Shown here one piece after another: positions 7,580-10,660 of a stretch of 30,540 bases of DNA (position 1 is the first letter of the stretch; each line of letters opens with the position of its first letter). This stretch comes from an uncultured Candidatus Saccharibacteria bacterium (GTDB lineage Bacteria > Patescibacteriota > Saccharimonadia > Saccharimonadales > JAUPVS01). Position numbers and translations under genes: made by a program. The stretch is taken from NCBI GenBank assembly GCA_964395925.1, contig CAYNBU010000003.1:6272-36811 (forward strand), read 5' to 3'. The notes beneath the pieces are model-generated. The model searched no databases and was not told the origin of the DNA. It worked only from the letters and a program-made list of their open reading frames with translations.

Positions 7580-8644
7580 TCACTCCGCCTGCATCAGGTC
7601 GTGTTCGGCCCTTTGCAGCTGTTCGACGAGATCGTCGATGTCGCCAGCCAATGCGCCCGGAATGTTGCTGCGGCTGTAGCTAATACGGTGGTCGGTAATG
7701 CGGTCTTGCGGGAAGTTATAGGTACGGATCTTCTCGGAGCGGTCGCCTGAGCCAATCAGTTTTTTGCGGGCGTCGGAGAGTTCTTTTTGCTCTTCTTCAA
7801 GCTTGGCGGCCAGCAAACGAGAACGCAGCACGCTCATGGCTTTCGCTTTGTTTTTTATCTGGGATTTCTCGTCTTGGTTCGAAACTACCAGGCCGGTTGG
7901 AATATGCGTAATGCGTACGGCTGAGTCGGTGGTGTTCACCGACTGGCCACCGTGGCCGCCGCTGCGGTAGACGTCGATCCGCAAATCGGAAGGGTTAATT
8001 TCGATGTCGGATTCTTCGGCTTCGGGCAGCACGGCAACGGTGACGGTGGAGGTGTGCACGCGACCTTGGCTTTCGGTAGTGGGTACGCGTTGCACCCGGT
8101 GTACGCCGGCTTCAAATTTGAAAGTACGGAAGGCATCGAGGCCGCGGATGGCAAAAATTACTTCTTTAAACCCGCCGACTTCGTTGGCACTTTCGCTTAA
8201 TAGTTCGAGTTTAAACCCGCGGCGTTCTGCCAGGCGGGCATACATGCGGTACAGCTCACCAGCAAATAAACTGGCTTCGTCACCACCGGCGGCGGCGCGG
8301 ATTTCGATAATACAGTCGCGCTCGTCGTTGGGGTCTTTGGGTGTGAGCGCCTCTTCGAGCTTGGCATTTACGGCGGCCAAGGTAACCTCAAGCTCAGAAA
8401 GTTCGGCACGGGCCATTTCGGCCAGTTCAGCGTCAGCGCCAGCTGCGAGTTCGGTGGCGTCGCTTTGTGCTTTGAGTGCGCCGGCACGAGCCTCAAACAG
8501 CTCAACAACCGCTTCAAGTTCGCTCTGTCGCTTGGCTAGCTTCGGATATTCGGACGTGCTGAAAATAGCCGGATCCTGCAAACGGGCTTGCAGGGCGGTG
8601 AGTTCCTCTCGTAGTGCGGCTTCTTTGTTGCTCGTACTGCTCAT
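7580..8644 (-). CDS. prfA: Peptide chain release factor 1
   Basis: GGQ motif ([17 protein letters not shown]), RF1-type PxT anticodon loop (RVPTTE), GVHRVQR and IRTYNFPQ. Confidence 0.97.
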
Positions 8645-8985
8645 TGTAATAGTAACCTTAGTTTTTGAGTCGTTTCATTAAGTGCTACCGCGGGTGCTTT
8701 AGTTGCGCGGCGTATCTTGCGAACTTGCCAGTCGAGTGTTTTAACTTGGTCGGCCAGAATGACACCGTCAATGGTAGCAGCCTGCACACGCACTTCAAAA
8801 GGGTAGCCCTTGATCTTTGTAGTTATTGGACACGCAAGCAGGAGTGAGGAGCGGCTGTTGTAATCTTTTGGCGACAATACCAAGGCGGGGCGTTGACCTT
8901 TTTGCTCGTGCCCAAGCGCCGGGTTAAAGTCTAGCCAGACAATATCGCCACGGTCGGGTATATATGCGGGCATGACCTTTACCAC
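8641..8985 (-). CDS. mazF: MazF/PemK family endoribonuclease toxin
   Basis: [27 protein letters not shown] and [20 protein letters not shown]. Start is GTG 8985 or ATG 8973. The TGA stop overlaps the prfA ATG (ATGA). Confidence 0.93.
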
Positions 8986-9239
8986 AACTCTTTGCCTACT
9001 GGCTCACCCCAGTCAGTTTCACCATGACGGTTGTCGGGATGTATGTCTGCAATAAGTTGCTTGAGGGATGGTGTGGGCAAAGCCTTCTTAGGGGTGCTTG
9101 GAGTCAAAATAATAGTATTGCCGCGAACACCTACGGTTACTTCTTGGTGAGCGTGCCATTGTGCGGCAGACAGCACCTTTTTTGGCAGGCGGATACCAGT
9201 GCTATTTCCCCAATTTTGAGTTTTTTGCGTTATCTTCAT
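8979..9239 (-). CDS. mazE: MazE (AbrB/SpoVT-fold) antitoxin
   Basis: QNWGNSTGIRLP AbrB signature and C-terminal L..LI..I.PDN.H.ETDWG.PVGKELW typical of MazE. Directly upstream of mazF. Confidence 0.92.
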   Translation of the reverse strand: MKITQKTQNWGNSTGIRLPKKVLSAAQWHAHQEVTVGVRGNTIILTPSTPKKALPTPSLKQLIADIHPDNRHGETDWGEPVGKELW

Positions 9240-9325: not shown

Positions 9326-9667
9326 CTATTTTACTTCGGCTGCTTCAGCAGGAGCTTCGGCTTCGTCTTCTTTTTTGGCACGAACTTTGCCAGCGCTCTT
9401 CATGCGAGCTTGGCGAGCCTTTTCGGCAGCCTGTGCGCGAGCCTTAAACTTGTCGACGCGACCTTCGATGTCGAGTACGCGTTCTTCACCAGTAAAGAAT
9501 GGGTGAGAGCTGCTGCTAATATGAACTTTTACCAGTGGGTATTCGGTACCTTCGTAGGTGATGGTTTCTTCGGCGTCAACCGTCGAACGGGTGAGGTACT
9601 TGGTGCCGTCGTTGAGGTCTTCGAACACAACAGGGCGATAGTTTTTGGGGTGTAGATCTTTTTTCAT
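9326..9667 (-). CDS. rpmE2: 50S ribosomal protein bL31 type B (Zn-free) with Ala/Lys/Glu-rich C-terminal extension
   Basis: [35 protein letters not shown] and GRVDKF. No Cys. Confidence 0.95.
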
Positions 9668-9744
9668 GATAATCCTTGCTCGATTAGTTTACCGGTTAGC
9701 AGTGAGCGAGGCTGCAGTCGGTCGTGCCATAATGCACAAAACTA
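9668..9744 (-). ncRNA. Candidate cis-regulatory structured leader of rpmE2
   Basis: Nested helices found by eye on the minus strand: TAGTTT/AAACTA, GTGC/GCAC, ACCG/CGGT, GCAG/CTGC. A loop is complementary to the SD region. The 5' end coincides with the predicted +1. Confidence 0.55.
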
Positions 9745-9750
9745 GAGGCT

Positions 9751-9779
9751 AGTATACACCTCTGTTGGTAAATCGTCAA
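9751..9779 (-). promoter_or_regulatory. rpmE2 promoter
   Basis: Minus strand TTGACG (9774-9779)-N17-TATACT (9751-9756). Confidence 0.8.
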
Positions 9780-9787
9780 GACAGGGG

Positions 9788-9816
9788 TTGCAGAAAATAG
9801 CCCTCTCTGTTACAAT
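9788..9816 (+). promoter_or_regulatory. rpsB-tsf promoter
   Basis: TTGCAG (9788-9793)-N17-TACAAT (9811-9816), back-to-back with the rpmE2 promoter. Confidence 0.75.
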
Positions 9817-9822
9817 GAACCC

Positions 9823-9925
9823 ACTAACAAAGTAATCAGTTTGGGATGCAATCCTCCTTTGTTCAACCCGTGTAGGGCAGCAAAGGTACCCAAATGAAGA
9901 TCAAGGATGCAAGGAGAAAACACCC
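9823..9925 (+). promoter_or_regulatory. Structured ~100-nt 5' leader of rpsB (candidate uS2 autoregulatory site)
   Basis: TTTGGG(9840-45)/CCCAAA(9889-94), CCTTTG(9856-61)/CAAAGG(9881-86) and CCC/GGG apical hairpin. SD AAGGAG at 9911-9916. Position matches the known S2-controlled rpsB leader. Confidence 0.55.
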
Positions 9926-10660
9926 ATGGCTACAAATAATGTAGACGTCAAACAACTATTAGAGGCTGGTGCGCATTTTGGGCACAAGAGCAGCCGTTGG
10001 CACCCAAAGATGGCGCCATACATTCACAGCAAGCGCGGCGGCAGTCACATTATTGACCTCACCATCACTGCTGAACAGCTCGAAAAGGCACTGAGCTTTA
10101 TCGAACAAATCGCACAAGACGGCAAGCAAGTCGTATTTGTGGGTACCAAGCGCCAGGCGCAGGGCATCCTCAAAACCGCAGCCGAAGCAACCAATATGCC
10201 ATATGTCACTGAGCGTTGGCTCGGTGGTATGCTCACGAATCGCAACACCATTGGCGGTCGTATCAAGCACCTCAAAGACCTCGAAGAAAAAATGGAATCA
10301 GGCGCCTTGGCAGCGAAATACAATAAGCTCGAGGTGCAGCGCTTCCAAGAAGAGATCGAAGAAATGAACCACAACTACGGTGGTATCAAAGATATGAACG
10401 CCAAGCCTGGTGCATTGTTTGTTGTTGACATCATCAAAGAAGATAATGCGGTGCGCGAAGCAACTAAGCTGGGTATTCCAATTGTGGCGATTGTCGACAC
10501 TAATACCGACCCAACCAAGGTTACCTACCCAATTCCTGCAAACGATGATGCTATCAAGACTATTCAGCTGATTGTTGATTATGTCGTTAGTGCAATCAAC
10601 ACCGGTAAAGCAAAAGTTAAAACCGTGAAACCAGATAAAGACGAGGTGGAGGCAAAATAA
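9926..10660 (+). CDS. rpsB: 30S ribosomal protein uS2
   Basis: LLEAGAHFGH...WHPKM.PYI, FVGTKRQA, RWLGGMLTN, IVDTNTDP and PANDDA. Confidence 0.98.
   Translation: MATNNVDVKQLLEAGAHFGHKSSRWHPKMAPYIHSKRGGSHIIDLTITAEQLEKALSFIEQIAQDGKQVVFVGTKRQAQGILKTAAEATNMPYVTERWLGGMLTNRNTIGGRIKHLKDLEEKMESGALAAKYNKLEVQRFQEEIEEMNHNYGGIKDMNAKPGALFVVDIIKEDNAVREATKLGIPIVAIVDTNTDPTKVTYPIPANDDAIKTIQLIVDYVVSAINTGKAKVKTVKPDKDEVEAK

Follow-up and report, generated by a model that had tools for sequence, protein, structure and literature searches.

The 5' untranslated region of rpmE in the Saccharibacteria DNA analysed here carries a conserved RNA structure, which is composed of a helix (P3), an asymmetric internal loop (ACU/UAAC), a second helix (P4) and a pseudoknot. 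This core observation is real and lies well past chance; it was established by comparison of about 60 Saccharimonadales rpmE leaders and not from the single sequence. It is close to certain that the leader is a functional cis-acting RNA of rpmE. We class it as a ribosomal protein leader (r-leader) for L31, with a new pseudoknotted architecture and in a phylum where none is known. From the analogies discussed below, it probably serves as a structurally distinct autoregulatory operator, with bL31 as the ligand and translation as the step that is repressed.

The rpmE locus and the parts of its leader

The window, by which we mean the whole stretch of 30,540 nucleotides that was analysed, belongs to a 0.77 Mb genome assembly that is 97% complete. 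The rpmE product scores 111 bits against the NCBIfam type B L31 model NF002462 (cut-off 86). The gene is single-copy in this genome, and its type-B product is the sole L31 there; rpmE is presumed to be the gene regulated by the leader and bL31 the ligand. The leader lies in the spacer of 258 bp between rpmE and the divergent rpsB, which starts at 9926 on the plus strand (Table 1). The rpmE promoter has a -35 element TTGACG (9779-9774), a 17-nt spacer and a -10 element TATACT (9756-9751) on the minus strand, and its spacer contains a conserved AACAGAGG box (9766-9759). In leader-bearing relatives, the same TTGAC-17-TAnnnT promoter nearly always lies 11-34 nt 5' of P3; in leaderless relatives it stands directly ahead of the rpmE ATG.

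Table 1. Features of the rpmE leader and its gene, in window coordinates
Feature	Coordinates	Strand	Description
rpmE	9326..9667	-	Type-B (non-zinc) ribosomal protein bL31, 113 aa; AUG 9667-9665
Shine-Dalgarno (SD) AAGGA	9673..9677	-	Begins right after the pseudoknot 3' strand; 5 nt before AUG
Pseudoknot 3' strand GAGC	9678..9681	-	Covaries with the P4 loop
A-rich linker AAACUAAUC	9682..9690	-	Holds conserved AACUAA (9689-9684) and the first-pass P1 3' strand (9690-9685)
P3 3' strand CGGU	9691..9694	-	Covariation
Junction J4/3 UAAC	9695..9698	-	3' side of internal loop, near-invariant; variants UAAU (L062), UACC (L149)
P4 3' strand CUGC	9699..9702	-	Covariation
P4 loop CCUCGCUCA	9703..9711	-	Pseudoknot 5' strand GCUC (9707-9704) in its 3' part
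P4 5' strand GCAG	9712..9715	-	Pairs with CUGC 9702-9699
Junction J3/4 ACU	9716..9718	-	5' side of internal loop, invariant or near-invariant in alignments A1, A2 and A3
P3 5' strand ACCG	9719..9722	-	Pairs with CGGU 9694-9691
P2 hairpin GUGC-AUUAUG-GCAC	9724..9737	-	GUGC 9737-9734 with GCAC 9727-9724; optional, lineage-specific
First-pass P1 5' strand UAGUUU	9739..9744	-	Opposite AAACUA 9690-9685
Sigma-70-type rpmE promoter	9751..9779	-	10/12 consensus positions

The helices P1 to P4 that the first-pass annotation had drawn can all be placed on the minus strand where it put them. The same is true of its loop match, in which seven of the eight positions of the P4 loop segment CCUCGCUC (9711-9704) are complementary to GAGCAAGG (9681-9674). 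The 91-nt leader alone gives little indication of structure. Its single-sequence fold is no better than that of shuffled sequences (z = -0.36), and the P1-P4 junction (-15.2 kcal/mol) differs from the nested minimum-free-energy fold (-18.2 kcal/mol). Rare variants of the J3/4 ACU (GCU, CCU and UCU) occur among the relatives. The A-rich linker is conserved in its 'AACU..AA' columns (alignments A2 and A3); its AACUAA may serve as a pseudoknot minor-groove strand, a P1 strand or a protein contact. A 13-codon open reading frame (AUG 9732 to UAA 9691, minus strand) overlaps P2-P4 and was considered as a leader peptide. It was rejected, since relatives lack the frame.

The first-pass annotation had further suggested that the element would gate mazEF-prfA-prmC if read-through occurs. 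There is no terminator in the rpmE leader, so the element could act only on the rpmE ribosome-binding site (RBS). Any effect on prfA-prmC would thus be indirect, with prfA mostly following rpmE directly. Among leader-bearing loci this gene order is seen in 39 of 51, and among leaderless loci in 80 of 89; prfA starts about 400 nt past the rpmE start in relatives. The window has mazE and mazF (NCBIfam matches; 8641-9239) between rpmE and prfA. Genes of the maz type occupy this position in only 3 of 140 loci, which, together with the order in relatives, points to a recent local insertion.

Two other features of the rpmE-rpsB spacer were observed. (T)AACAGA(G/T) boxes are repeated on the minus strand at 9759-9766, within the rpmE promoter spacer, and at 9805-9812, overlapping the rpsB -10. 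In some relatives (the L034, L044, L052 and L065 regions) two to three copies lie about 10-11 bp apart, 5' of the -35. The box is kept in both leader-bearing and leaderless rpmE promoters, and within the window it is found at no promoter-like site except this spacer. It may be a transcription-factor site. The rpsB 5' UTR (9805-9925, plus strand; -10 TACAAT, 9811-9816) is also conserved across Saccharimonadales. By eye, its pattern reads '..AAUUAAGCAG, UUUGGG, .., AAUCCUCC, UUUG, .. CCGUGUAGG ..' in the 5' part and 'CAAAGG, ACCCAAA, YGAAGA .. AAGGAU .. AUG' in the 3' part. UUUGGG/CCCAAA (UUCGGG/CCCGGA in L008) and CCUUUG/CAAAGG are apparent nested helices, and the anti-SD-like AAUCCUCC seems to face AAGGAU, which is conserved. 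No consensus structure for this region came out of RNAalifold when a MAFFT alignment was used, its single-sequence z value is -0.37, and no Rfam family matches it. It is a candidate S2 (rpsB-tsf) leader.

Covariation of P3, P4 and the pseudoknot

Loci of rpmE were fetched from 60 relatives. RNAalifold recovers P3 and P4 from the aligned leaders unaided, with compensatory changes at five of the eight pairs. In alignment A2, 96.3% of the P3/P4 pairs are kept, as against 84.3% after shuffling. Double changes were counted in 49 cells compared with 15 in shuffled alignments (reached in 0 of 500), and controls with slid partners are paired at only 15-45%. Compensatory changes occur at three of the four P3 pairs, and 95.8% of the P3 cells are paired among 48 leaders. 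For P4 the figure is 97.9%; its third pair exchanges A-U and G-C (29 versus 18 sequences), and its fourth covaries too. P4 variants such as GCAC/GUGC and GCAAG/CUUGC are seen.

The pseudoknot was examined on 48 distinct leaders aligned to a covariance model (R2, described below). This model contains no pseudoknot, and the alignment is therefore not fitted to one. Columns 20-24 (loop) and columns 89-91 and 96-97 (tail) are paired at 75.5%, versus 66.0% when shuffled (0 of 500) and 19-49% in slid controls, and double changes occur at all five pairs. An alignment-free test, scored by Watson-Crick run length and by duplex energy, shows that each loop favours its own tail over the tails of other leaders (0 of 20000 permutations). 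The pairing of the window, GCUC:GAGC, is replaced in relatives by GCCC:GGGC, GGCU:AGCC, AGCU:AGCU, GGCC:GGCC, UGGC:GCCA, GCAC:GUGC, GUCC:GGAC, GACC:GGUC, GACUC:GAGUC, ACCC:GGGU or GUUC:GAAC. The arrangement is that of an H-type RNA pseudoknot, in which a hairpin loop pairs with a single strand elsewhere; compensatory changes have preserved this pairing through at least 10 distinct complementary pair sets. Altogether, 10 of the 13 pairs in P3, P4 and the pseudoknot show changes on both sides. G-U pairs in P3 and the pseudoknot identify the structured strand as the rpmE-sense strand.

The covariation expected from the first-pass model was thus found for P3, P4 and the core pseudoknot (GCUC/GAGC) and is missing for P1. 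Cognate P1 segments pair no better than non-cognate ones and do not covary. The conservation of the P1 5' strand is accounted for by the promoter/start region, because its RGUU(A) is also present in leaderless relatives. The leaderless form reads '-10, N4-6, RGTT, ATG' and the leader form '-10, N4-6, RGTT, A..leader..ATG'. The P1 5' strand may be partly untranscribed. P2, an optional and variable inserted hairpin, is limited to the window, its close relatives and a small number of further lineages. Most leaders have 11-18 nt from the -10 to P3, which leaves no room for P2, and in L008, L049, L061, L067 and L041 the site is filled by different hairpins of unrelated sequence. The proposed three-way junction is therefore local at best, as P1 shows no covariation, P2 is lineage-restricted, and it is P3, the internal loop, P4 and the pseudoknot that are conserved.

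The coupling of this structure to the RBS is close. The P4 loop is able to form a pseudoknot helix of 4-7 bp in 47 of 48 leaders, and the gap between its loop strand and the P4 3' strand is 0-3 nt. The tail strand lies 0-5 nt from an SD-like purine run in 46 of the 48 (0-2 nt in 38 of these 46) and ends 8-21 nt 5' of the AUG (median about 12-13 nt). In L043 and L065, insertions of 130-160 nt separate the P3 3' strand from the segment with AACUAA and the pseudoknot partner; despite these insertions, the partner still adjoins the SD. L066 has no pseudoknot partner, and there P3 itself adjoins the SD.

The pseudoknot was originally read as pairing into the SD and occluding it. Of this proposal, GCUC (9707-9704) with GAGC (9681-9678) covaries, and the extension CCU:AGG (9711-9709 with 9676-9674) into the SD is not kept among the leaders. 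For the most part the SD is left unpaired, and the conserved helix stops short of it, ending 0-2 nt before the SD in the 38 leaders noted above. Direct occlusion by pairing is thus not a conserved feature. The term switch is not supported either, as no conserved alternative pairing was found among the leaders. A pairing of the 5' GGUUA with UAACC was considered; both of its strands are invariant.

Distribution across genomes and relation to known leaders

In a first split of 30 rpmE loci, 20 are nearly leaderless (ATG about 12 nt past the -10) and 10 have a leader with the conserved core 'G ACU GCRG, loop, CYGC UAAC C'. A covariance model of this core (R1, 8 bp) was run across the order Saccharimonadales and matches 37 of 151 genomes, around a quarter, once per genome with one exception. 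The exception is a metagenome-assembled genome (G090, 4% contamination) with two different rpmE genes (L045 and L061), and a different version of the leader precedes each of them; the bin probably mixes strains. All 30 matches that were fetched lie directly upstream of rpmE, 52-76 nt before its start, or 216 nt in L043, which has an insertion. Presence of the leader is largely consistent by family (3/3 in f19, 3/3 in f31, 0/24 in f64 and 0/5 in f50), and in the family of the window it is mixed, by genus. A collection of 80 loci gathered by similarity of the bL31 protein gave the same picture. Eleven have the leader, always directly upstream of rpmE, and in the other 69 the ATG is 7-13 nt past the -10 at every locus where a promoter was identifiable. 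The nearly leaderless rpmE of most Saccharimonadales (L002-L030, L079-L158) lacks an SD and otherwise has the same promoter. With about three quarters of the order having a near-leaderless rpmE, the control appears to be dispensable.

A richer covariance model (R2) was built from 37 sequences. It found no true member in about 250 Patescibacteria genomes from other orders and classes. Weak matches outside the order (20-22 bits) lie inside coding genes, before rpsC or away from any rpmE, and were dismissed as false. When 185,579 species genomes were scanned blindly for the pattern, 10 strong matches (46-57 bits) came up, all in Saccharibacteria and all directly before rpmE; the many matches in other phyla, none above 28 bits, are attributed to chance. 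No copies near rplE, prfA or any gene other than rpmE were found in the genomes searched. The element thus occurs exclusively before one ribosomal protein gene, next to its RBS, with a conserved secondary structure supported by covariation, as is expected of an r-protein leader. An r-leader is the most economical reading. The first-pass suggestion of a lineage-specific, structured cis-element in the rpmE 5' UTR is borne out, as is a pseudoknot with its 3' strand next to the SD.

A cmscan of the whole window against Rfam 15, which the first-pass annotation had proposed as a check, gave no match at gathering scores, and no family matches the leader. At E<=10, the region 9500-10100 yields just a noise match to sroE, away from the leader. 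Five L31 leaders have been predicted, in Actinobacteria, Coriobacteria, Corynebacteriaceae, Firmicutes and Gammaproteobacteria, and all are single hairpins (Eckert & Weinberg 2020, PMC7247131). The present element shares the rpmE 5' UTR location of the Rfam L31 leaders and has neither a match to their models nor the single-hairpin architecture. It resembles the four from outside Gammaproteobacteria in being supported by covariation, in standing solely before rpmE, in being restricted to one lineage and in having a ligand inferred from the lone downstream r-protein gene (PMC7247131). None of the published L31 leaders is reported from Patescibacteria/CPR, and none matches the leader of the window even at E<=10. 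Our literature searches found no r-leader or structured RNA described for Saccharibacteria/CPR.

In E. coli, translation of rpmE is repressed by bL31, which acts on a stem-loop in the 5' UTR and depends on its N-terminal residues 2-8 (PMC7297116). The type-B paralogue L31p represses in the same manner and likewise requires its N-terminus (PMC9825181). The gammaproteobacterial leader and the present one are both 5' UTR cis-elements just before the SD with the encoded bL31 as presumed ligand (PMC7297116), and both have an A/U-rich stretch adjoining the structured part. The present bL31 retains, as MKKDLHPK, the Lys-rich N-terminus on which repression depends in E. coli. However, the E. coli operator is one stable stem-loop, whereas the present leader combines a pseudoknot with a stem of two helices and an invariant internal loop, and it has no sequence or covariance-model similarity to the E. 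coli leader (Rfam L31-Gammaproteobacteria). Regulation has been demonstrated in E. coli, while the leader described here is known from sequence and precedes a gene for a type-B protein that is the only L31.

Proposed regulation of rpmE and alternative explanations

The proposal that bL31 represses its own translation draws on E. coli bL31, on L31p, on the five predicted rpmE leaders and on the bL31 N-terminus MKKD(L/I)HP, which is conserved in relatives. The P4/pseudoknot helix, rigid and probably coaxially stacked, would be held against the RBS. Free bL31 in excess over ribosomes would bind the leader fold, probably by recognizing the G-C-rich P4 and the internal loop with its invariant sequence, and the Lys-rich N-terminus is the likely RNA-binding part of the protein. 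Binding would stabilize the pseudoknot, and the 30S subunit would be kept off the SD or trapped unproductively. The outcome would be negative feedback on bL31 synthesis, where we infer both the ligand and the sign of the regulation.

The E. coli operators of rpsO (S15) and of the alpha operon (S4) are built on a similar principle. In these, a hairpin loop pairs beside the SD, and the r-protein stabilizes the resulting pseudoknot, which blocks or traps the 30S subunit even though part of the SD stays unpaired. As the SD of the rpmE leaders is also mostly unpaired, we liken the predicted action to that of the S15 and S4 operators (steric block or entrapment) and not to simple sequestration of the SD. 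These operators differ from the rpmE leader in the protein involved and are unrelated to it in sequence and helix layout, and no Rfam S15 or S4 leader model matches.

Several observations speak against a bL31 operator. About three quarters of the order do without the leader, the SD is usually unpaired, and a comparison of the bL31 proteins of leader-bearing and leaderless genomes found no discriminating residue. Where bL31 contacts rRNA is poorly defined (PMC7297116). We searched for mimicry of rRNA by the leader and found nothing convincing in a comparison limited to 5S, since the assembly of the window has no detectable 16S or 23S rRNA. The genome's own 5S rRNA (L069:507-621, contig C10) has only a superficial similarity to the leader, as judged by eye.

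It is barely credible that the conserved feature is not an RNA at all and reflects a DNA-level site (a promoter or a transcription-factor operator) or chance. Such an origin would fit the unremarkable energy of the single-sequence fold (z = -0.36) and the conserved AACAGA boxes in the same intergenic region, but it is already contradicted by the covariation, with compensatory changes on both sides at 10 of 13 pairs. G-U pairs are moreover tolerated on one strand only, and the pseudoknot pairing is kept across variable spacers and across the 130-160 nt insertions. The RNA might also be structural and bind no ligand, either as constitutive protection of the 5' end from RNases or as a means of offering the SD and an A-rich standby/enhancer site to the 30S subunit, without feedback. 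The unpaired SD beside the helix and the conserved AACUAA linker ahead of it would suit this role, and the existence of leaderless relatives suggests that feedback is not essential. We nevertheless consider it rather unlikely, since a stabilizing hairpin would need neither an asymmetric internal loop that is nearly invariant nor an invariant P4 sequence, and constraint of this kind usually marks a specific binding site.

For a pseudoknot of this size the count of invariant nucleotides is high enough to fit a small-molecule aptamer as well, which is a further point against the bL31 operator. Small pseudoknot riboswitches have an anatomy that resembles that of the leader: the fold is compact, about 17 core nucleotides are invariant, and the RBS is adjacent. 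A riboswitch-like sensor of a small molecule or ion (e.g. a nucleotide alarmone or a metal) could set the translation of rpmE and perhaps, by polarity, that of prfA-prmC; prfA follows rpmE directly in 39 of 51 leader-bearing loci, which possibly form a translation-factor operon. Riboswitches, however, normally control several ligand-linked genes over a wider range, and this motif is tied to one gene family in one order. It matches no Rfam riboswitch model even at E<=10, is neither shared among several ligand-linked gene families nor recognized by a known aptamer model, and has been freely lost in sister lineages. We regard such a sensor as improbable, and likewise give little credence to its broader form, a very small pseudoknot aptamer that would respond to a metabolite, ion or signal derived from the ribosome, set expression of rpmE-prfA-prmC and represent a riboswitch class born in and confined to CPR. 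The leader may instead be an operator for a different protein, such as another ribosomal protein (e.g. uL5, the partner of bL31), the RF1 encoded downstream, an RNA chaperone or an RNase. The position of prfA after rpmE at most loci and the suggestion that ribosomal partners such as L5 might assist repression by bL31 (Aseev et al., PMC7297116) would agree with this. We hold it to be unlikely, as the element is present at the rpmE RBS only, with no copy near rplE, prfA or another gene in the genomes searched.

Almost no gene regulation has been characterized in Patescibacteria/CPR. If the leader is indeed an operator for bL31, it would be, as far as we have found, the first covariation-supported cis-regulatory RNA for an r-protein gene in these organisms. 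It would also be a sixth architecture for recognition by bL31, a small and largely disordered protein, unrelated to the other five and the first to be pseudoknotted. Because bL31 has no well-defined rRNA site, a compact RNA, about 45-60 nt long and with an internal loop that does not vary, offers an attractive system to study how the protein reads RNA. Within one order, the same promoter leads either to a leader or to a near-leaderless rpmE, which would make this order a natural experiment in the gain and loss of translational feedback.
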